From the IMG/VR virus record IMGVR_UViG_2671180279_000001: a stretch of 15,355 nt of DNA. The stretch is one strand, 5' to 3'. Positions 1 through 15,355 of this stretch are shown here, piece after piece (position 1 is the stretch's first letter; every line of letters starts with the position of its first letter). Under the pieces are notes generated by a model. That model saw nothing but the letters and a program-made list of their open reading frames with translations. It ran no database searches and had not been told where the DNA came from. The position numbers were made by a program, and so were the translations under genes. The stretch comes from a virus. Lineage: Duplodnaviria; Heunggongvirae; Uroviricota; Caudoviricetes.

Positions 1-282
1 TTCGGTGAACGCACTATGGCGACGCTGGGGCGTCTTATGAGCCTGCTGTCACCCTTTGACGTGGTGATATGGATGACGGATGGCTGGCCGCTGTATGAAT
101 CCCGCCTGAAGGGAAAGCTGCACGTAATCAGCAAGCGATATACGCAGCGAATTGAGCGGCATAACCTGAATCTGAGGCAGCACCTGGCACGGCTGGGACG
201 GAAGTCGCTGTCGTTCTCAAAATCGGTGGAGCTGCATGACAAAGTCATCGGGCATTATCTGAACATAAAACACTATCAATAA
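1..282 (+). CDS. insB: IS1 transposase InsB, C-terminal part (5' end outside window)
   Basis: Frame 1 reads [34 protein letters not shown]...HYLNIKHYQ*, recognised as the InsB C-terminus; the ORF is open to the window start. Confidence 0.9.
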
Positions 283-3471: not shown

Positions 3472-4779
3472 TTAAATCCGAAGTGATGTGACTCTTCCGG
3501 TCGGTTTGACAATAGGGAATTGCTTAACGATGAAATAACCTCCGGCATCATTCGGGTGATCATTGCCAGATTTTTTATCAGGCTCCCCCTTCTCATCCCA
3601 GACCTGTTGCTCCAGAGATTCGGCATATAACGGGCAACGCTTCACATTAACTTTATAGCGACGCTCACCATTGGCATTGCAGAACATTGCATTCATTGAG
3701 TTAACGCGATCTTTTACTGGCGGGTTCGAGCTGTTCACCACAACGTTAAAACCAGCCTGCTTAAGCTGGGCTATATCCGTCGTACTTGCGTTACTTGATT
3801 TTCTGGAATCCCCGGAAGCATCTGGATAAATATAAATTTCCCTCACTTTCCGGTAATCATTCCCATCATACAGCCAGAAGCGTTCTTTAATGATGCGGAT
3901 CATATCCGGCGTATCGTAGGCATTGATGATTTCAGTTACCGCACATGGAAGCCCCAAACGCAGCACATGGACGATTCCCGCCATCTTTCCAACGTTAAAA
4001 TCCATCCCAATATAAATCGGCTCCCCTGGCTGCTCCACTTCTTCGCAATTATTCAGTTTCCGGTCAAACTGATGGTAAACAGTACCACTTGTCAGGTTAG
4101 TAAACTGTCCTCGAAGATAGGCTTTAATCAGCTCTGGAGGGTATGATTCAAGAAGCGAAGGAATGTAATCTGCTGGCAGGTTCTTTTCATTATCGAAAGT
4201 AGATGCCTGCACCAGACCATACAGTGAGGCCAGCTCTGTTTTTTCACGCACGGCTTTAACAAACTGCTCGTAGACAAATTTGAATCCTTCCGGCGTGGTT
4301 GTAACGTCAATACCGTTGCGAAGTCCATCAATCTTATAACGCATACGTGCAATTATCTTGCGCCACGCCGTTCTGGCTTTTTCCTTCGGCAAAATGTCCA
4401 GTTCATCCACCAACGCATTACCAATTTTGAAACCGACGATCGTTTGTGGCTTCTCCATCGATCTGCAGATAGTGGTTCCCCGATACTGGCGTCCGTAATA
4501 AAAGTGAACCTCTTTATTTCCCTCATTAATTTTTACGTTCAATCCCCAGTCAGCAGCAACTTCTTCTACTGTAGGGTAAAAAATATCGCGAATTTGGGGA
4601 TACGTTGGCGCAAAATATCCCTGATTTATACCTGGATGCTCCCAAATCCCCTTGCATATGCCGCCACACCCAACCCATATTTTGCCCGAGCCAAAACCAG
4701 CAATATAGGCTTTAAATTTATGGGGCATTGAAAGAAATCGCGCCTGAGGCACATTAAGCGTCGGAGAGATCATCTTCAT
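3472..4779 (-). CDS. terL: Terminase large subunit
   Basis: N-terminal Walker A-like AGFGSGK; C-terminal nuclease-like acidic motifs (GMDFN, YPDASGD). Overlaps the small-terminase stop. The ORF track begins at a GTG at 4782; the ATG at 4773 has the best spacing to an AAGGAG Shine-Dalgarno, so the exact start is uncertain. Confidence 0.85.
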   Translation of the reverse strand: MKMISPTLNVPQARFLSMPHKFKAYIAGFGSGKIWVGCGGICKGIWEHPGINQGYFAPTYPQIRDIFYPTVEEVAADWGLNVKINEGNKEVHFYYGRQYRGTTICRSMEKPQTIVGFKIGNALVDELDILPKEKARTAWRKIIARMRYKIDGLRNGIDVTTTPEGFKFVYEQFVKAVREKTELASLYGLVQASTFDNEKNLPADYIPSLLESYPPELIKAYLRGQFTNLTSGTVYHQFDRKLNNCEEVEQPGEPIYIGMDFNVGKMAGIVHVLRLGLPCAVTEIINAYDTPDMIRIIKERFWLYDGNDYRKVREIYIYPDASGDSRKSSNASTTDIAQLKQAGFNVVVNSSNPPVKDRVNSMNAMFCNANGERRYKVNVKRCPLYAESLEQQVWDEKGEPDKKSGNDHPNDAGGYFIVKQFPIVKPTGRVTSLRI

Positions 4780-5848
4780 CACTCCTTACTCTGGCATCAA
4801 CCACATTAATATTGATCGCCACAGGCTGGGGATGTTCATTATCTTCCACCGTTTCGATCTCTTTGCGCAGCTTCTGGTTTTCCATTCTGCGCCGTTCAAT
4901 TTCCAGTTCCTGTAGCCGTTTATCTGCACATAAAGCCCCGCCAGCAGAAAACAAACGCAACAATTCACGCCGGGCGGCAGCCTTATCCTCCAGCAGGATC
5001 TCAACGCCGAATTTTCCGAATTTTGCCCCTGCATATAATTGCCGCGCATCCCCATCAAGCAGAGTGGTATCAGCCATATAAAGCTGTCCCGTTCCCTCAC
5101 CGCAGCACTTCGGGCAGTCCGGATTGGGTATGGCGTTATCAACAAAGCCGAGGCCTCCATATTCCGGTTCGGGTTTGCCATCTCTGGAAGCCTGCGCCGC
5201 TGCCTTGTCGAATTCTGCTATATCGCGCCACTGGTAGAGATGATTCTCGCCCCAGCAATAACGGCAGTTAACACGGCGAAATTGTGCAAGCTGATTGGGG
5301 TCGGCCAGGACAATAGCCATCAACTGACTCACTAGTAAATCCAGGTCTGCGGTATAGCGTTTCTGGTACTGATTGCGGAAGTAGCTGATAGCGCGAAAAA
5401 CCCTGGCATTTCTAAGCATACGACTGGCGTTGCTGTTAGCTGTCGCACCTTGCCCCTCATAACCGGCTAGTCGGTACGCCTCTGTCGGCTTTTTACCCTG
5501 AGCAACAAGCATCGCAAACTTAGCCTGCTGGTCAGAAATGCCGAATTCATCGGGACAGAACGAAAATTCCTCCGCGTCGCCCTCATTCAGGCCCGCATCG
5601 AATACTGGCTTTTTTTCCTGAGATTTTTCGTTCCGCTTTTGTGCAGTCTGCGCAGATTTTTTCTGCGCACTTTTTTGCGCAGTTTTGCACATTTCTGTCT
5701 GCGCATTTTTCGGAGTTTTTTTGATGTAACGACGGGCTGTTGCGTAATTCAGTCCCCTTGCTTCACACCATGCCACCGGAGATATACCGGAGCGGGTGTA
5801 TTCAGCAATATACTCCTGCTGCAACGCCCCCCAGTCCGGTCTGCTCAT
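4754..5848 (-). CDS. terS: Terminase small subunit, unusually long (364 aa), with N-terminal HTH-like region, AQK-repeat linker and Cys-rich C-terminal region
   Basis: Motif KKPTEAYRLAGYEGQGATANSNASRMLRNARV resembles the conserved small-terminase (Terminase_2-like) signature; lies immediately upstream of and overlapping terL; contains CRYC...CPKCC. Confidence 0.7.
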   Translation of the reverse strand: MSRPDWGALQQEYIAEYTRSGISPVAWCEARGLNYATARRYIKKTPKNAQTEMCKTAQKSAQKKSAQTAQKRNEKSQEKKPVFDAGLNEGDAEEFSFCPDEFGISDQQAKFAMLVAQGKKPTEAYRLAGYEGQGATANSNASRMLRNARVFRAISYFRNQYQKRYTADLDLLVSQLMAIVLADPNQLAQFRRVNCRYCWGENHLYQWRDIAEFDKAAAQASRDGKPEPEYGGLGFVDNAIPNPDCPKCCGEGTGQLYMADTTLLDGDARQLYAGAKFGKFGVEILLEDKAAARRELLRLFSAGGALCADKRLQELEIERRRMENQKLRKEIETVEDNEHPQPVAININVVDARVRSDEDDLSDA

Positions 5849-5851
5849 CAG

Positions 5852-6103
5852 TTAGTCCTGATTTTTATCCACCCTGAGTAGTTCGCGCAGAGCAAAGGCA
5901 TCCCCTTTTCTGGCAAGCTTAAACAATGCCGCTCGTAACTCGGCTTCACCTTTCGCTCTGCCCTTACGGATGGCCGCATAAAAATCTGTCATTGCTTCCC
6001 GATTTTCTTTCAGTCGGTTCAGATCAACATCCAGAACGTCAGCGATTTGTTGTGCAGTCATCCGGCACGCTGCCAGAGACTCGACTTTCGAATACGGAAT
6101 CAT
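5852..6103 (-). CDS. Hypothetical small protein with HTH-like segment (83 aa)
   Basis: ORF with a G-rich Shine-Dalgarno (GGGGGTGA) 4 nt before the ATG; TAQQIADVLDVDLNRL looks helix-turn-helix-like; stop is 3 nt before the terS start. Confidence 0.4.
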   Translation of the reverse strand: MIPYSKVESLAACRMTAQQIADVLDVDLNRLKENREAMTDFYAAIRKGRAKGEAELRAALFKLARKGDAFALRELLRVDKNQD

Positions 6104-6971
6104 TTGTCACCCCCATTGATATGCAGGGTGTCTTCTTCCTGTATTTTTCGTGAAGGATTTTTACTGCAGCGTTGTTCCAGGTGACCTGATGGTGAATGCG
6201 TTTATGGCTGGCACCCATCAGTGAGATTTTTACGCACGACGGCGCATACATGACGGAGTAAAAACTTTTAACGTAGGTTCCGGAATCCAGATACAGCTCG
6301 GTCATTCCGCCGCTGTTTTTCTGCGTCTGTTTCTGCCCTAACTGGACAGCACCGATCGTCATAAACAATTCACCACAGCGACCGAGATTCGTGTACGTAT
6401 TCACATCCTCGTTAATGCGCCCCATGAATGAGAACGGTCGATCAACCGAACAGATAAAGCTGTTCATTGCCTTGCGTTTCACCCACGAAGCATGGCCGCC
6501 ATTGTCACCAAGAAAATCCCCGCCCTGCGACATAGCGATGGAAAGAGCAGGTATTGATTCGTAGTACGCCAGCATTTCAGAAAGGATCGCATCCAGTTTC
6601 CTTATCGGAAAATAGGCCTGGTCATAGTTGCGATCCACCCGAAACTGGAACTCGTGATAATCATCATCGAGCTGAATGAAGTATTTACACCCGACCAGTT
6701 TTGCCAGGTCGAAACAGGCATTACGGGCGTAAAAAATTGAGCGGCGGTCACAGAAATTATCGGCTTCGTCAAAACGACTGGCGATATCGGCTTTGGAAAA
6801 CACCAGCACCTGTTCACCAAATTCAGCCATGTACTGATTCCGTGTCTTATCTTCATCATCAACAACGATAAAAATTTTCCCGGTATAGCCAGCACGACGC
6901 AACGTCCGGTAAGTCAGAACTTTGTCCGGTCGCCCGTGAGTCAGAATAAAGGCGCAAAAATCATCACGCAT
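6039..6971 (-). CDS. Uncharacterised 310-aa protein, possibly Rossmann-like/GT-A-like fold; translationally coupled to the upstream ParB-like gene
   Basis: Start MRDDFCAF at 6971 is preceded by GAGGAGGAGGA (formed by the EEEE codons of the ParB-like gene) and overlaps that gene's stop as ATGCGTGA. Beta-strand-like hydrophobic runs are followed by acidic motifs (IFIVVDDED, YFIQLDDDY). I found no methyltransferase (D/NPPY), P-loop or PP-loop motif. Confidence 0.5.
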   Translation of the reverse strand: MRDDFCAFILTHGRPDKVLTYRTLRRAGYTGKIFIVVDDEDKTRNQYMAEFGEQVLVFSKADIASRFDEADNFCDRRSIFYARNACFDLAKLVGCKYFIQLDDDYHEFQFRVDRNYDQAYFPIRKLDAILSEMLAYYESIPALSIAMSQGGDFLGDNGGHASWVKRKAMNSFICSVDRPFSFMGRINEDVNTYTNLGRCGELFMTIGAVQLGQKQTQKNSGGMTELYLDSGTYVKSFYSVMYAPSCVKISLMGASHKRIHHQVTWNNAAVKILHEKYRKKTPCISMGVTNDSVFESRVSGSVPDDCTTNR

Positions 6972-7755
6972 ATTCCTCCTCCTCACCACCATGCATGATC
7001 TCCACCATGCGCTGCGTCATCCGGACAAATCCATTTTCAATAGCCTGCTGATAATCAATGATCACCAGCGCCGACTCCTCGAAAAAACACTGAATTTCAG
7101 AGGGGGCGTGAGCGTAATAGTCCGCAATTCTGCTGAAATTAAACACCGTGTGACGTTCTGCCGCACACAGGAGGAATTTCTCAATATCAGGCTCAAGGGA
7201 CGCCGAACGTATCCGGCTGATCAGCTCCTGAGTTTTCGTATCGTCGTACAGTTCACTGATATCCGGTTTACCGCCCGACGGCTCATAAACAGGCGTATCA
7301 ATTTTCGTCGTATACGGCTCCTCCTCATTTCCTGTACCGGGCAAAACATCCGTCAACAGTTCATCAATTTCTGTCGGGATGAAGCCTGTCAGGGAGACAT
7401 CAAAATCAGCATTGATTAGGTCCGACAGCTCCATCCGCAACAGATCTTCATCCCAGCCAGCATTCATCGGCAGGCGATTATCTGCCAGGCGGTACGCCTT
7501 TTTCTGCTCATCCGTCAGGCCAGACAGAACAATGACCGGAACAGAATCCATTTTGAGCATTTCAGCCGCCATAACACGACCGTGACCCGCAATAATTTCG
7601 CCCTTTTCGTCAATCAGCACCGGATTAGTCCAGCCGAATTGCTTAATACTTTCTACCAGTTGTGCCACCTGCTCAGGGCTGTGCGTCCTGGCGTTGTGCG
7701 CATACGGTGACAATTCTTGTAATGGGCGATAGACTATCTTTAATTTCTCGCTCAT
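6964..7755 (-). CDS. ParB N-terminal domain (ParB/sulfiredoxin-like) protein
   Basis: N-terminal 100 aa (IVYRPLQELSPYAHNARTH...IIAGHGRVMAAEML...VPVIVL) matches the ParB/Srx-fold pattern with a GHGR variant of the GERR box; C-terminal 150 aa unassigned. The position after Rz-trkG matches the ynaK/ydaY slot of the K-12 Rac prophage as I remember it (unverified). Confidence 0.7.
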   Translation of the reverse strand: MSEKLKIVYRPLQELSPYAHNARTHSPEQVAQLVESIKQFGWTNPVLIDEKGEIIAGHGRVMAAEMLKMDSVPVIVLSGLTDEQKKAYRLADNRLPMNAGWDEDLLRMELSDLINADFDVSLTGFIPTEIDELLTDVLPGTGNEEEPYTTKIDTPVYEPSGGKPDISELYDDTKTQELISRIRSASLEPDIEKFLLCAAERHTVFNFSRIADYYAHAPSEIQCFFEESALVIIDYQQAIENGFVRMTQRMVEIMHGGEEEEYA

Positions 7756-7767
7756 ACAGCCTTGCTT

Positions 7768-7805
7768 TATGAATAAAACGCACCCCAGCAGCCAGTGCTA
7801 CTGGG
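7768..7805 (-). terminator. Putative intrinsic terminator downstream of trkG
   Basis: Minus strand reads CCCCAG-(12 nt)-CTGGGG followed by TGCGTTTTATT; it sits between the trkG stop and the ParB-like start. Confidence 0.45.
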
Positions 7806-7892
7806 GACGGAGGGGTTGCTGGTAAAGTTAGGTATTGGATCAATGAGTGAGTCAACATAATATTAAACTCACAATTATAAATCAGCCATATA

Positions 7893-10912: not shown

Positions 10913-11308
10913 CTAACCTCGCATGTCAAAGCCAGATTTCTGAAAATCTCTGTAGACTTCCGGATTGTTGAAGGCCGGAAATTTGGCTTTATGAGCTGCG
11001 GACTTTATCGCTTCGCAATAGGCTTTATCACCGTTACTGGTAGATATTTTTAACGCCGTGCCATCCTGAGAGAATTCCATATGCAACCTGCATTTTTTCC
11101 CTTTCCAGTTATGCGGCTCATCAAGTTTGGCATTAATTGCAGCTCTGATTCCCCGCGCTTGCGCCCCCCATTCATCCTGATCATCCCAGCGTCCTGAACT
11201 GCAACTACCTGTAGCAGTAGTTTTGTGGCAATCTGAAGGGTGTAAAGGTGTGCATCCCGCAACAAAACCGACCCAAAAAGTCAACATAACGATTTTCTTT
11301 AATCCCAC
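10913..11308 (-). CDS. Predicted outer-membrane lipoprotein with diverged TolA C-terminal (domain III)-like domain
   Basis: GTG start with GAGGAG Shine-Dalgarno; signal peptide MGLKKIVMLTFWVGFVAGC with lipobox VAGC and Thr at +2; C-terminal region GKKCRLHMEFSQDGTALKISTSNGDKAYCEAIKSAAHKAKFPAFNNPEVYRDFQ shares the spacing and two Cys of the downstream paralog and of TolA domain III. Confidence 0.7.
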   Translation of the reverse strand: MGLKKIVMLTFWVGFVAGCTPLHPSDCHKTTATGSCSSGRWDDQDEWGAQARGIRAAINAKLDEPHNWKGKKCRLHMEFSQDGTALKISTSNGDKAYCEAIKSAAHKAKFPAFNNPEVYRDFQKSGFDMRG

Positions 11309-11458: not shown

Positions 11459-11887
11459 TCAGGGTTTAAAATCCAGCACCCCATTTTGAAATACTTTATA
11501 TACTTCCGGCGAAGGGGGGGCAGGTATATCAGCATTCTTTATCGCATTCATCGCTTCACGACATAAATCGAGGTCTCCACTTTCTCTTTTAACCTCCAGT
11601 AGAAGGCCATTCGGGGCCATATGCATTCTCAGTGTACACTCTTTTCCTGAATACTTACTCGCATCCCCGAACTGTTTTTCGATGGCGCTCTTGATTTGAT
11701 GGGCATACAGACGGATATCCTCACTAACATCAGAAGTACGTTCAGATGAACTCACATACTGTGTCTCTATTGCTTTATCGGAGTAATATGATGTACGGTC
11801 ATGATAATTTGTCGATACAGCATCAGTGCACCCGATAATAATCCCACTAATAATCAACGTAAGAATTGATGCGCTACGAAAACCCAT
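11459..11887 (-). CDS. Predicted outer-membrane lipoprotein carrying a TolA C-terminal (domain III)-like domain
   Basis: Signal peptide MGFRSASILTLIISGIIIGC with lipobox IIGC and Thr at +2; C-terminal 80 aa YAHQIKSAIEKQFGDASKYSGKECTLRMHMAPNGLLLEVKRESGDLDLCREAMNAIKNADIPAPPSPEVYKVFQNGVLDFKP align colinearly with the end of chromosomal E. coli TolA as recalled (...YAGQIKSAIESKFYDASSYAGKTCTLRIKLAPDGMLLDIKPEGGDPALCQAA...IPKPPSQAVYEVFKNAPLDFKP), both ending in LDFKP; GAGGA Shine-Dalgarno. Confidence 0.85.
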   Translation of the reverse strand: MGFRSASILTLIISGIIIGCTDAVSTNYHDRTSYYSDKAIETQYVSSSERTSDVSEDIRLYAHQIKSAIEKQFGDASKYSGKECTLRMHMAPNGLLLEVKRESGDLDLCREAMNAIKNADIPAPPSPEVYKVFQNGVLDFKP

Positions 11888-15057: not shown

Positions 15058-15355
15058 TGTACTGACCCCAAAAAGTTGGACAGTTAAACACGAGGCATAT
15101 AGGTCTGATTCCGATATTCAATTGGAGTCAGACCTTTTAATTTCAGGCTAATTCTTCTGCTGTTGTAGTATTCAATATATTCCGTAACAGCATCCTTCAG
15201 TTCGCTTATATTACTGAACTCATCAAGATAAAAACACTCCGACTTTAAGGTTCCAAAGAAACACTCCACCACAGCATTATCCAGACAATTGCCTTTTCTG
15301 GACATGCTTTGTTTAATACCATGTTCTTTAAGGATATTTTGATATCTTCTCATAC
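15058..15355 (-). mobile_element. IS3-family insertion sequence (IS150-like), end of element; continues past window end
   Basis: Terminus TGTACTGACCCCAAAAAGTTGGACAG starts at 15058 with TG (IS3-family ends are TG...CA); contains the transposase C-terminus on the minus strand. Confidence 0.85.
15084..15355 (-). CDS. IS3-family transposase (OrfB), C-terminal part; N-terminus outside window
   Basis: ...[31 protein letters not shown]...[28 protein letters not shown] is the conserved C-terminal region of IS3-family DDE transposases; reading frame open to the window edge. Confidence 0.85.

Follow-up and report, generated by a model that had tools for sequence, protein, structure and literature searches.

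At the start of its packaging operon, an intact Rac-type prophage carries two overlapping genes, one for a 310-aa glycosyltransferase of the TET-associated glycosyltransferase (TAGT) family and one for a 263-aa ParB-like protein ending in a newly described adaptor module; an adaptor gene lies immediately upstream of the TAGT gene in 93 of 100 dereplicated TAGT loci, as detected with a custom HMM. Both genes are carried by the 15,355-nucleotide stretch of Caudoviricetes DNA that was analysed here (IMG/VR record IMGVR_UViG_2671180279_000001), hereafter the window. Tentatively, and with slightly less than even confidence, we propose that the two proteins assemble into a ParB-tethered enzyme of two subunits, which adds sugar to phage DNA once it has been replicated, at about the time of packaging, and uses an acceptor other than the classical 5hmC or 5hmU. 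The module is widespread and strongly conserved, no hydroxymethyl source was found beside it, and it points either to a new acceptor or to an unexpected role for the family.

Gene organization and the TAGT-family glycosyltransferase

Both open reading frames named in the initial annotation are present on the minus strand of the window (Table 1). The transferase gene was taken to run from the ATG at 6971 to the stop at 6039, not from an in-frame ATG at 6992 that yields a 317-aa version in the ORF listing, because homologues begin with MRDDF. The ParB-like protein ends in HGGEEEEYA, and its poly-Glu codons contain the Shine-Dalgarno sequence GAGGAGGAGGA of the transferase gene; the two genes overlap by 8 nt (ATGCGTGA) within the junction GGTGGTGAGGAGGAGGAATATGCGTGA, an arrangement that had been recognised from the outset. 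Each protein has thousands of homologues in database searches, and in 89 of 93 independent loci the two genes again overlap, so that a chance arrangement of ORFs can be set aside.

A terminator-like hairpin, with a 10-bp stem including 7 GC pairs followed by TGCGTTTTAT, separates the ParB-like gene from the trkG moron, and no convincing promoter for the gene pair was seen in Rac by consensus scan. At the other end, the last ~29 residues of the transferase (282-310) are non-conserved and overlap an 83-aa ORF (69 aa in the RefSeq call, a hypothetical protein in the SE11 annotation), which is followed by the TerS and TerL genes. The pair is therefore upstream of the terminase genes, as had been proposed, but not literally adjacent to them.

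Table 1. Features of the gene pair and its neighbourhood (positions in the window)
Feature	Position	Strand	Basis
Terminator-like hairpin, trkG moron/ParB-like gene interval	7783..7806	-	Consensus scan only
ParB-like/adaptor gene, 263 aa (full-length ynaK)	6964..7755	-	ORF translation, Pfam ParB_N, phrog_620
ParB/Srx N-domain (residues 1-95) and helical extension (96-135)	7351..7755	-	AF2, Foldseek, alignment
Acidic linker, predicted disordered (residues 136-170)	7246..7350	-	pLDDT <50
Motif Y148-T-x-K-I-x-x-P155-x-Y157-E-P in linker	7279-7314	-	Partner alignments
C-terminal helical adaptor domain (residues 171-255)	6991..7245	-	Custom HMM; without Pfam model
Translational-coupling junction	6964..6984	-	GAGGAGGAGGA 6984-6974, ATG 6971-6969, TGA 6966-6964
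TAGT-family GT-A glycosyltransferase gene, 310 aa	6039..6971	-	Pfam PF20691, phrog_842
Conserved core of transferase (residues 1-281)	6129-6971	-	
DDD of transferase (residues 102-104)	6660-6668	-	
Small ORF, 83 aa, between gene pair and TerS	5852..6103	-	phrog_309 'terminase small subunit', 8.3e-23
TerS gene (4754-5848) and TerL gene (3472-4782)	3472..5848	-	Pfam Terminase_2, Terminase_6N, Terminase_6C

The 310-aa protein, initially described as uncharacterised and without a family, matches the named Pfam family TAGT (PF20691; 121.1 bits, cut-off 27.5, E = 7.6e-35, residues 8-222) and phrog_842 (1.1e-103) and, judged by these profiles and by its predicted structure, is a TAGT enzyme of the GT-A fold, in keeping with the earlier guess of a GT-A nucleotide-sugar transferase. 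The family is said to have been defined by Iyer et al. in 2013. The AF2 model of the protein has a pLDDT of 71.6 overall, with values >90 in the N-terminal half and a poorly resolved C-terminal third. In Foldseek searches against the PDB, it matched the GT-A enzymes K4CP, SunS, and SpsA (E about 1e-4), and the peptide- or protein-modifying GT-A enzymes SunS/ThuS, glycogenin, and collagen GalT were among the matches; against the BFVD viral library, it matched TAGT models with an E-value of 1.6e-25 and TM scores of 0.76-0.83. A C-terminal extension of ~60 aa is conserved yet lies outside the Pfam model.

The acidic motifs noted initially as DDED and DDD were located at residues 35-42 (IVVDDEDK) and 100-105 (QLDDDY), respectively. 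Among 32 homologues sharing 59-82% identity, R14, D102-D104, and N187-E188-D189 are invariant. R14, the DDD, and the ED match the R...DDD...EDY/F active-site motifs published for phage 5hmC glycosyltransferases and JGT (bioRxiv 10.1101/2023.12.21.572611), a match that was counted in favour of a catalytic-subunit role; the residue following ED is Val, versus Tyr or Phe in the published ED(Y/F) motif. The characterised relatives act on DNA, i.e. phage GT-A enzymes on 5hmC (Burke 2021; Pyle 2024) and trypanosome JGT on 5hmU, and a T6-type TAGT has been proposed to attach a second glucose on glucosyl-5hmC. In some members of the subfamily the TAGT is fused to another TAGT or to a methyltransferase, sulfotransferase, or P-loop domain.

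With a pI of 8.6, the core of the transferase is basic, and its contrast with the acidic ParB-like partner (pI 4.5) was counted in favour of the two-subunit proposal. No obvious hydrophobic or membrane segment was seen in the transferase by eye, and the protein has no match among the PADLOC defence families. A seroconversion-type envelope glycosyltransferase was ruled out on the lack of an obvious membrane segment and on a genomic context that is never envelope-related.

The ParB-like protein, its adaptor module, and their distribution

The 263-aa protein, named 'ParB/Srx family N-terminal domain-containing protein' in RefSeq, matches Pfam ParB_N (PF02195; 28.9 bits, cut-off 26.3) and phrog_620 (8.5e-91). 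Its AF2 model has a pLDDT of 68.3 overall and of about 82-93 over residues 11-90; it was built on a shallower alignment than the 89-sequence partner set and gives the adaptor domain low confidence. The best Foldseek matches of the N-domain were M. xanthus ParB-CTPgammaS, Noc, B. subtilis ParB-CDP, PadC, and KorB, with Srx also among the matches (E down to 1.4e-6). The sequence GHGR at residues 57-60 aligns to GERR of Noc/ParB, with an invariant R60, His58 in place of the catalytic Glu, and Gly59 in place of the first Arg. The ParB/sulfiredoxin-fold domain with a GHGR variant described in the initial annotation is thus borne out. The replacement of the catalytic Glu weighs against the proposal, as do the moderate quality of both AF2 models and the poor resolution of the C-terminal third of the transferase and of the adaptor domain.

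Over its first 137 aa, the protein shares 30-57% identity with the N-terminal part of phage DNA methyltransferases. Matches to PADLOC MTase_II (2.2e-38, positions 13-151 of 436) and phrog_498 (1e-50) cover only the N-terminal 141-144 residues. These results agree with the link between ParB-N domains and DNA-modifying enzymes that had been put forward at the start. The 263-aa protein itself has no Pfam match to a methyltransferase domain, and neither an HTH nor another recognisable DNA-binding domain was found in it by Pfam or in the AF2 model. It is strongly acidic, with a net charge of about -25; this charge, together with the lack of a recognisable DNA-binding domain, weighs against the proposal. 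The protein scores 38.5 against TIGR00180, below the NCBIfam cut-off of 58.45, and no ParA is present in the 42-kb Rac prophage stretch of E. coli SE11. A partition function was ruled out on the missing HTH, the missing ParA, and the TIGR00180 score, GenBank names such as 'chromosome (plasmid) partitioning protein' notwithstanding.

The constant partner of TAGT, as judged from sequence profiles and alignments, is not the ParB domain but the YTxKIxxPxYEP motif together with the helical domain of ~90 aa. Y148, P155, and Y157 of the motif are each at least 90% conserved among 89 diverse partners and invariant in a 49-sequence alignment. A profile of the adaptor domain, which is a previously unannotated domain, gave 712 matches; among the 120 listed, nearly all are stand-alone proteins of ~130 aa without a Pfam domain. 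Stand-alone adaptors of this kind, which lack ParB, also sit directly upstream of a TAGT. Against PDB sequences the domain had only chance-level matches (E of 0.006 or worse), and in PHROGs it is placed only in the ParB-adaptor family phrog_620. The conserved pairing anticipated initially therefore stands, but it is tied to the C-terminal module and not to the ParB domain itself.

The 100 loci derive from many bacterial phyla, an archaeal MAG, and the halovirus HHTV-2, and a stop-start overlap of 4-20 nt between the partner and TAGT genes is present in 89 of the 93 paired loci. The initial annotation had allowed that the 310-aa protein might have no enzymatic fold and no conserved pairing; a GT-A fold and this near-universal pairing were found instead. 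ParB-fused versions of the adaptor lie upstream of TerS/TerL, whereas stand-alone versions lie within replication modules, with DnaN-like clamps or replication genes next door. Of the 149 genes at downstream positions +1 and +2, about 59 or more encode TerL, in a tally that rests on Pfam counts, the iterative TerL search missing gpA-type and other terminases; the Pfam types of the downstream TerL vary (Terminase_6N, Terminase_3, GpA, and T7-like). The adaptor-TAGT-terminase order was also found in phi jlb1 and NTR1, and non-integrated phage genomes with the pair include Vibrio phage pv27, Nocardia phage NTR1, and HHTV-2. The setting is in every case one of DNA transactions, which was counted in favour of the proposal, as were the near-universal pairing and the ParB module shared with DNA methyltransferases.

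The full 2.1-kb region was found in 867 of 5426 complete E. coli genomes (about one in six). In K-12, for which ynaK and ydaY had been suggested as a degraded equivalent, ynaK does correspond to the ParB-like gene, of which it comprises codons 1-87, but ydaY is a tail-region gene and not a transferase remnant; the glycosyltransferase gene has been deleted outright. Nothing functional was found in the literature on ynaK/ydaY. Because K-12 lacks the transferase, a clean gain-of-function test is possible in that strain.

Proposed mechanism, acceptor, and alternative readings

According to the proposal, both genes would give rise to one heteromeric enzyme of the intact Rac-type prophage. The 310-aa protein would be its catalytic subunit, a GT-A, DxD-type, NDP-sugar-dependent enzyme of the TAGT/JGT family, and the 263-aa protein an obligate partner whose YTxKIxxPxYEP motif and helical domain may bind or activate the transferase. 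The N-terminal ParB/Srx domain, of an NTP-binding type, may couple the enzyme to double-stranded phage DNA, a suggestion modelled on the ParB proteins that activate phage thymine dioxygenases. It weighs against the proposal that, in the sole ParB-activator system studied, mutation of the NTP-binding residues made little difference and a stable complex could not be captured (PMC13229309). The overlap of the two genes at the head of the packaging operon would allow the subunits to be translated in a fixed ratio, and phage DNA would be glycosylated after replication, at about the time of packaging. The most plausible purpose of such glycosylation would be the blunting of host restriction. Modified DNA, should this be the product, would matter for the evasion of restriction, including Type IV systems, for the sequencing of prophage DNA, and for enzyme tools for DNA labelling.

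Neither the annotation of the 42-kb Rac stretch examined in E. coli SE11 nor that of the complete phi jlb1 genome (38 kb) contains a TET/JBP, a ThyS-type hydroxymethylase, or a further glycosyltransferase. TET/JBP and ThyS are likewise lacking within +-8 kb of three stand-alone adaptor loci and from the top-25 family lists for 269 upstream ORFs of 78 loci, an exclusion that covers 8 kb upstream and the annotated genomes, not every whole genome. To our knowledge, E. coli produces neither 5hmC nor 5hmU, and we know of no modified base in Rac-type phages, the latter being a point against the proposal. Since the pair is not accompanied by an enzyme that produces hydroxymethyl-pyrimidines, the acceptor is probably not classical 5hmC or 5hmU.

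A more specific possibility, which we consider doubtful, is that sugar is transferred in an adaptor-dependent manner straight onto canonical, unmodified DNA, i.e. onto a base N or O, the backbone, or the ends made during packaging, with no prior hydroxymethylation. It weighs against the main proposal, too, that unmodified DNA offers a hydroxyl acceptor only at its ends and that, as far as we know, N-glycosylation of a base by a GT-A enzyme would be unprecedented. As far as we know, DNA glycosylation begins with a hydroxymethyl-pyrimidine or hydroxy-pyrimidine, as in T-even phages, base J, and the TET-linked phage pathways. A sugar on unmodified DNA would, if true, represent a new chemical class of DNA modification, which about one-sixth of complete E. 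coli genomes would carry in intact form and which would also occur in temperate phages of haloarchaea and of many bacterial phyla.

The acceptor may instead be a protein, either the adaptor itself (at a Tyr or Thr of YTxKIxxPxYEP, by self-priming of the glycogenin type) or a packaging or virion protein from adjacent genes; we regard this as unlikely. It would fit the host's lack of a hydroxylated DNA base, the strong conservation of Y148, P155, and Y157 in a predicted disordered segment, and the presence of SunS/ThuS, glycogenin, and collagen GalT among the structural matches. GREB1, a TAGT-family member, O-GlcNAcylates ER-alpha (PMC7968844), which favours a protein acceptor and weighs against our proposal. 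A docking peptide, however, equally predicts a conserved motif in a disordered linker, and the ParB module of the partner is the one fused to DNA methyltransferases. Moreover, stand-alone adaptors are located among replication genes and not structural genes, and the terminase is unlikely as a specific acceptor, given that the downstream terminases come from several Pfam families.

Transfer of sugar in the manner of a classical TAGT, onto 5-hydroxymethyl-pyrimidines or onto a sugar already in place, supplied by enzymes whose genes lie at another site in the phage or in the host, appears improbable. The names of the Pfam and PHROG families and what is known of the activities of relatives point in this direction, C5-cytosine methylases make up 8 of 134 upstream ORFs in one scanned set, and the domain fusions within the subfamily suggest elaboration of a glycan. 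The searches for TET/JBP, hydroxymethylases, and other glycosyltransferases described above all argue against it, however, as does the apparent lack of 5hmC and 5hmU in E. coli.

Similarly improbable is a role of the ParB-like protein mainly as a packaging accessory or nuclease, in pac-site marking or terminase loading, with the transferase serving the envelope or a metabolite. The constant position of the pair before TerS/TerL and database names of the 'ParB-like nuclease' kind are consistent with such a role, and, according to PMC8256090, Iyer et al. 2013 proposed that modification machinery is guided to DNA by ParB proteins during packaging. Nevertheless, the conserved C-terminal adaptor also occurs in proteins that lack ParB and in loci that lack a neighbouring terminase, the two genes overlap and are hardly ever found apart, the transferase has no membrane segment that is obvious by eye, and the ParB module is fused to DNA methyltransferases, not to terminases.

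Finally, a pair serving the lysogen, as a prophage defence that glycosylates incoming DNA or as a toxin-antitoxin-like couple in which the acidic protein encoded upstream inhibits the basic enzyme encoded downstream, would resemble toxin-antitoxin organisation in its small acidic protein gene overlapping a basic enzyme gene and would accord with the suggestion of Pyle et al. that prophage glycosyltransferases are possible anti-phage factors, but it is highly improbable given that the genes lie inside late, packaging, or replication operons, including those of the non-integrated pv27, NTR1, and HHTV-2, that the transferase matches no PADLOC defence family, and that the Rac pair follows a terminator-like hairpin with no convincing promoter seen.

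Comparison with known systems

Partition ParB proteins (TIGR00180) share with the Rac protein the fold of the N-domain and the last Arg of the GERR box, whereas the Rac protein has no HTH or parS-binding domain and no ParA and carries GHGR for GERR. The transferase resembles other TAGT enzymes, i.e. the phage 5hmC glycosyltransferases and the T2/T6 beta-glucosyl-HMC-alpha-glucosyltransferase and, distantly, JGT and GREB1, in its Pfam/PHROG membership, its GT-A fold, and its R/DDD/ED motifs, and the phage enzymes also in being phage-encoded. It differs from them in that no TET/JBP or hydroxymethylase partner was detected, in having a translationally coupled adaptor subunit (obligate, in the proposal), in the conserved C-terminal extension beyond the Pfam model, and in the fixed placement of the pair before a terminase or in replication modules.

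Residues 1-141 of the Rac protein are, over their full length, homologous to the ParB-N::DNA methyltransferase fusions of phages and prophages (phrog_498, MTase_II; Kaljevic et al. 2025, PMC12704722), which share the temperate-phage habitat. In the Rac-type pair, by contrast, the effector is a separate enzyme of different chemistry, linked via the adaptor domain.

A parallel in organization is seen with 5mYOX176/ParB176 (O'Toole et al., PNAS 2026, PMC13229309), in which an orphan ParB homologue is encoded beside a post-replicative DNA-modifying enzyme. By its published description, that ParB shares with the Rac protein, as modelled by AF2, an N-domain of nucleotide-binding type, a short helical segment, a long disordered linker, a C-terminal domain, and the lack of an HTH, and it has the same top structural matches (M. 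xanthus and Caulobacter ParB). The 5mYOX-activating ParBs are needed specifically on dsDNA (PMC13229309). The enzyme there is an Fe/2OG dioxygenase and here a glycosyltransferase, and the C-terminal module found here also exists without ParB. TAGT-family glycosyltransferases join the thymine dioxygenases as the second class of enzyme that seemingly depends on a repurposed ParB.

The transferase and its overlapping partner gene

The 310-aa product of the downstream gene belongs to a known family, in a configuration not described before. It matches Pfam PF20691 'TET-associated glycosyltransferase' (TAGT; E 7.6e-35, 121 bits vs. a cut-off of 27.5) and phrog_842 (1e-103), and its AlphaFold2 model (mean pLDDT 71.6; >90 across most of residues 1-150) resembles PDB structures of GT-A enzymes (chondroitin polymerase, SunS/ThuS, SpsA, and glycogenin among them) and predicted viral TAGT proteins (TM 0.7-0.8). 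The Pfam and Foldseek matches bear out the GT-A fold guessed in the initial annotation. Residues R14, D102-D104, and E188-D189, invariant in homologues with 59-82% identity, correspond to the R...DDD...EDY/F active-site motifs of 5hmC-glycosylating phage GT-A enzymes and of trypanosome JGT (bioRxiv 10.1101/2023.12.21.572611). Conservation of the core extends to about residue 281; the final ~29 residues are found in the E. coli version only and overlap the next ORF. A search of 1.84 billion representatives retrieved 1324 relatives at E 0.001 or better, and some members of the subfamily are fused to a second TAGT, a class-I methyltransferase, a sulfotransferase, or an N-terminal P-loop (GxxxxGKS) domain (homologues P0248, P0250, P0284, P0267/P0268, and P0271/P0306/P0319), which is suggestive of glycans elaborated by methylation or sulfation, or of a kinase step.

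The junction between the two genes is GGTGGTGAGGAGGAGGAATATGCGTGA, an overlap of 8 nt, and the Shine-Dalgarno sequence of the transferase gene is formed by Glu codons in the acidic tail of the 263-aa ParB-like protein. A longer, 317-aa reading of the transferase ORF is not favoured because the homologues start at the same MRDDF. The ORF bounds, the junction, and a Noc/ParB alignment agree with the earlier description of the ORFs, the poly-Glu Shine-Dalgarno sequence, the overlap, and the GHGR motif.

Loci were fetched with a diverse transferase alignment, 80 from viruses and 80 from a one-genome-per-species collection (Enterobacterales, Bacteroidota, Clostridia, Veillonella, Kiritimatiellia, Acidobacteriota, Planctomycetota, Patescibacteria, and an archaeal MAG), and 100 were left once near-identical E. 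coli copies had been removed. A gene detected by an HMM built on residues 141-263 of the window's ParB-like protein lies immediately upstream of the transferase gene, on the same strand, in 93 of these, so that the pairing proposed previously is conserved. The remaining loci comprise three without upstream DNA, three with this gene 0.8-3.2 kb upstream, and one with a ParB-N ORF only. In 89 of the 93 loci the two genes overlap by 4-20 nt, from the transferase start to the stop codon of the upstream gene, most commonly by 11 or 8.

ParB_N was recognised by Pfam in 51 of 89 partners; ten others, scanned singly, mostly gave weak scores, and a minority had no N-domain at all. Nearly all partners share the motif Y-T-x-K-I-x-x-P-x-Y-E-P and a subsequent helical domain (FLxxAAxRHxVFNYxKIAEYYAHA...SALVIIDFxKAIENG); Y148, P155, and Y157 are at least 90% conserved in the 89 partners and invariant in a 49-sequence alignment. 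A profile of this region retrieves 712 proteins, and nearly all of the 120 matches listed are stand-alone proteins of ~130 aa without a Pfam domain. Each of the three stand-alone genes looked up is followed directly by a TAGT gene, and Vibrio phage pv27 has a 139-aa version in the same position. Since motif and helical domain are kept in nearly all partners and also occur alone, the obligate partner of the transferase subfamily is a new adaptor module that often carries a ParB domain at its N-terminal end. The module matched no Pfam model in a Pfam scan and had no relative in a PDB sequence search.

The model of the 263-aa protein consists of a ParB/Srx N-domain (residues 1-95; pLDDT ~82-93 over 11-90), a helical extension (103-134), an acidic disordered linker (136-170; pLDDT <50), and a C-terminal helical domain (172-255) of low to moderate confidence. 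Its best Foldseek matches in the PDB are the CTP/CDP-bound ParB proteins of M. xanthus and B. subtilis, together with Noc, PadC, and KorB, in agreement with the ParB/sulfiredoxin fold suggested initially. GHGR (residues 57-60) aligns to GERR of Noc/ParB, with the catalytic Glu replaced by His and the first Arg by Gly; the last Arg is retained and invariant in the family. Homology to the module at the N-terminus of phage DNA methyltransferases (phrog_498, 1.2e-50; PADLOC MTase_II, 2.2e-38) extends over the whole of residues 1-141, which share 30-57% identity with 528 phage records, roughly half of the 60 listed being annotated as methyltransferases. The whole protein is strongly acidic (pI 4.5, net charge about -25) and the transferase core basic (pI 8.6). 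Identity as a partition ParB was rejected: the protein has no HTH, no ParA is nearby, and its TIGR00180 score is under the cut-off.

Prophage setting and distribution

The window corresponds to the late region of a lambdoid, Rac-type E. coli prophage; on the (-) strand the order is Q-like region, lysis genes, trkG, gene pair, 83-aa ORF, TerS, TerL, portal, and minor head protein. A terminator-like hairpin separates trkG from the pair, and late transcription would need read-through. The 83-aa ORF matches only the middle part of the terminase-small-subunit PHROG phrog_309, as if a DNA-binding piece of TerS were encoded apart from the 364-aa TerS. Given the transposase fragments at both ends of the window, the head genes of this copy may be disrupted. 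The SE11 equivalents of two lipoprotein-like ORFs are annotated as TolA C-terminal-domain proteins; these ORFs may be morons affecting the envelope or colicin/phage entry.

Features of the window and of loci with stand-alone adaptors
Feature	Coordinates	Strand	Remarks
ParB-like ORF	7755-6964	-	263 aa
Transferase ORF	6971-6039	-	310 aa; ATG at 6971, stop at 6039
83-aa ORF	5852-6103	-	good GGGGGTG Shine-Dalgarno; 65-nt overlap with non-conserved transferase tail
Terminator-like hairpin	7806-7783	-	strong; follows trkG, 28 nt ahead of ParB-like start
trkG moron	9368-7893	-	low GC, 0.37-0.40 vs. 0.48-0.50 in neighbours
Lysis genes	10718-9488	-	
Two small paralogous lipoprotein-like ORFs	10913-11308, 11459-11887	-	between lysis cassette and DUF1133 gene
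Transposase fragment, left end	16-282	+	abuts head-region gene 293-934; resembles the C-terminal part of IS1 InsB
Transposase fragment, right end	15084-15353	-	matches IS3-family transposase at the same SE11 place
DnaN-like beta sliding clamp after transferase	L108:5114-6193; L112:8871-9959; L145:9071-10153; L148:2182-3240		four fetched loci; adaptor without ParB domain

A 2.1-kb stretch around the pair is present in 1610 of 5426 complete E. coli genomes (867 with at least 80% coverage). The K-12 slot ynaK/ydaY had been regarded as degraded, which holds for ynaK: MG1655 retains only the first 87 codons of the full gene. The truncated gene is joined by a deletion to ydaY, a tail-region gene that lies between the tail-tube and tape-measure genes in the intact SE11 prophage, and K-12 therefore has none of the transferase gene.

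RefSeq names the genes 'ynaK / ParB/Srx family N-terminal domain-containing protein' and 'hypothetical protein'. In deposited phage genomes (ON470581 and relatives, ON032529) the former is labelled 'chromosome (plasmid) partitioning protein', and some such records label the transferase 'beta-glucosyl-HMC-alpha-glucosyltransferase', transferred from T2/T6 via remote clustering; both labels are unjustified for these phages.

Genomic neighbourhoods and acceptor enzymes

ParB-fused versions are typically followed by TerS and TerL. Among 149 genes scanned with Pfam at positions +1 and +2 downstream, the TerL-type hits were Terminase_6N (28), Terminase_3 (21), GpA_nuclease (8), Terminase-T7_RNaseH-like (4), and TerL_ATPase (2); the position before the terminase is constant though terminases vary in Pfam type. 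The order is ParB-like 024, TAGT 025, TerS 026, and TerL 027 in Lactobacillus phage phi jlb1, and orf1, orf2, and TerL in Nocardia phage NTR1; in halovirus HHTV-2, TerL lies 3 kb downstream of the pair (gp21 and gp22). Stand-alone adaptor versions are located in replication modules. A DnaN-like sliding-clamp gene directly follows the transferase in all four stand-alone genome loci with enough downstream DNA, which raises the question of whether a replication clamp takes the place of the ParB 'clamp' in these versions; the genes flanking other stand-alone loci encode DnaB, DNA polymerase A, primase, RecT/RecA, or SNF2 helicase.

Characterised relatives depend on 5hmC, 5hmU, or a sugar that one of these already bears. 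In the SE11 Rac prophage, the 42 kb analysed, recE through to the tail genes, contain no TET/JBP, thymidylate-synthase-like hydroxymethylase, or methyltransferase, and no 5hmC/5hmU-making enzyme is annotated in the complete phi jlb1 genome or was found within 8 kb either side of three stand-alone loci. For the 8 kb upstream of 78 loci, 269 ORFs of 170 aa or more were scanned, the commonest families being DNA methylases (N6_N4 in 11, C5 in 8) and replication/recombination proteins; Tet_JBP and Thymidylat_synt were in neither top-25 family list of these ORFs. Acceptor-making enzymes are rare or absent near the pair, a bound that covers the scanned neighbourhoods rather than whole genomes.

A putative two-subunit DNA glycosyltransferase

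The best-supported reading, drawn from sequence comparisons, is that the pair would constitute a two-subunit, post-replicative DNA glycosyltransferase with the 310-aa protein as putative catalytic subunit. Near-universal adjacency, gene overlap, and opposite charges suggest that the adaptor module binds or activates the transferase; homology to the methyltransferase-fused module and the 5mYOX precedent suggest that the ParB module couples the enzyme to DNA. Action on newly made phage DNA would fit a gene pair that opens the packaging operon or, in the stand-alone form, has a sliding clamp for a neighbour. The most interesting question is the identity of the acceptor. Glycosylation of a protein instead of DNA is a rival that has in its favour the GREB1 precedent (PMC7968844) and the invariant tyrosines of the disordered motif. 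Alternatively, the pair could act classically on hydroxymethyl-pyrimidines made elsewhere, the ParB-like protein could be a packaging accessory, or the pair could have a lysogen-side defence or toxin-antitoxin role.

Our literature search found no experimental work on any glycosyltransferase that depends on ParB or an adaptor. Phage GT-A enzymes of the TAGT family glycosylate 5hmC, and ~65% of mined glycosyltransferase contigs, which have no neighbouring 5mYOX/ThyS, were put aside because their link to DNA was less obvious, and ParB-like neighbours received no more than a passing mention (bioRxiv 10.1101/2023.12.21.572611). Prophages are enriched in orphan ParB-CTPase folds fused to methyltransferases, and these folds bind CTP or ATP (PMC12704722); Iyer et al. 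2013, as cited in PMC8256090, put forward the idea that modification enzymes are directed by ParB in the course of packaging. A phage thymine dioxygenase is activated, on dsDNA specifically, by a ParB homologue that has N- and C-terminal domains joined by a linker but lacks a DNA-binding domain; the ParB-dependent dioxygenase subclass is associated with kinases and amino-acid transferases, whereas the ParB-independent subclass is associated with glycosyltransferases (PMC13229309).
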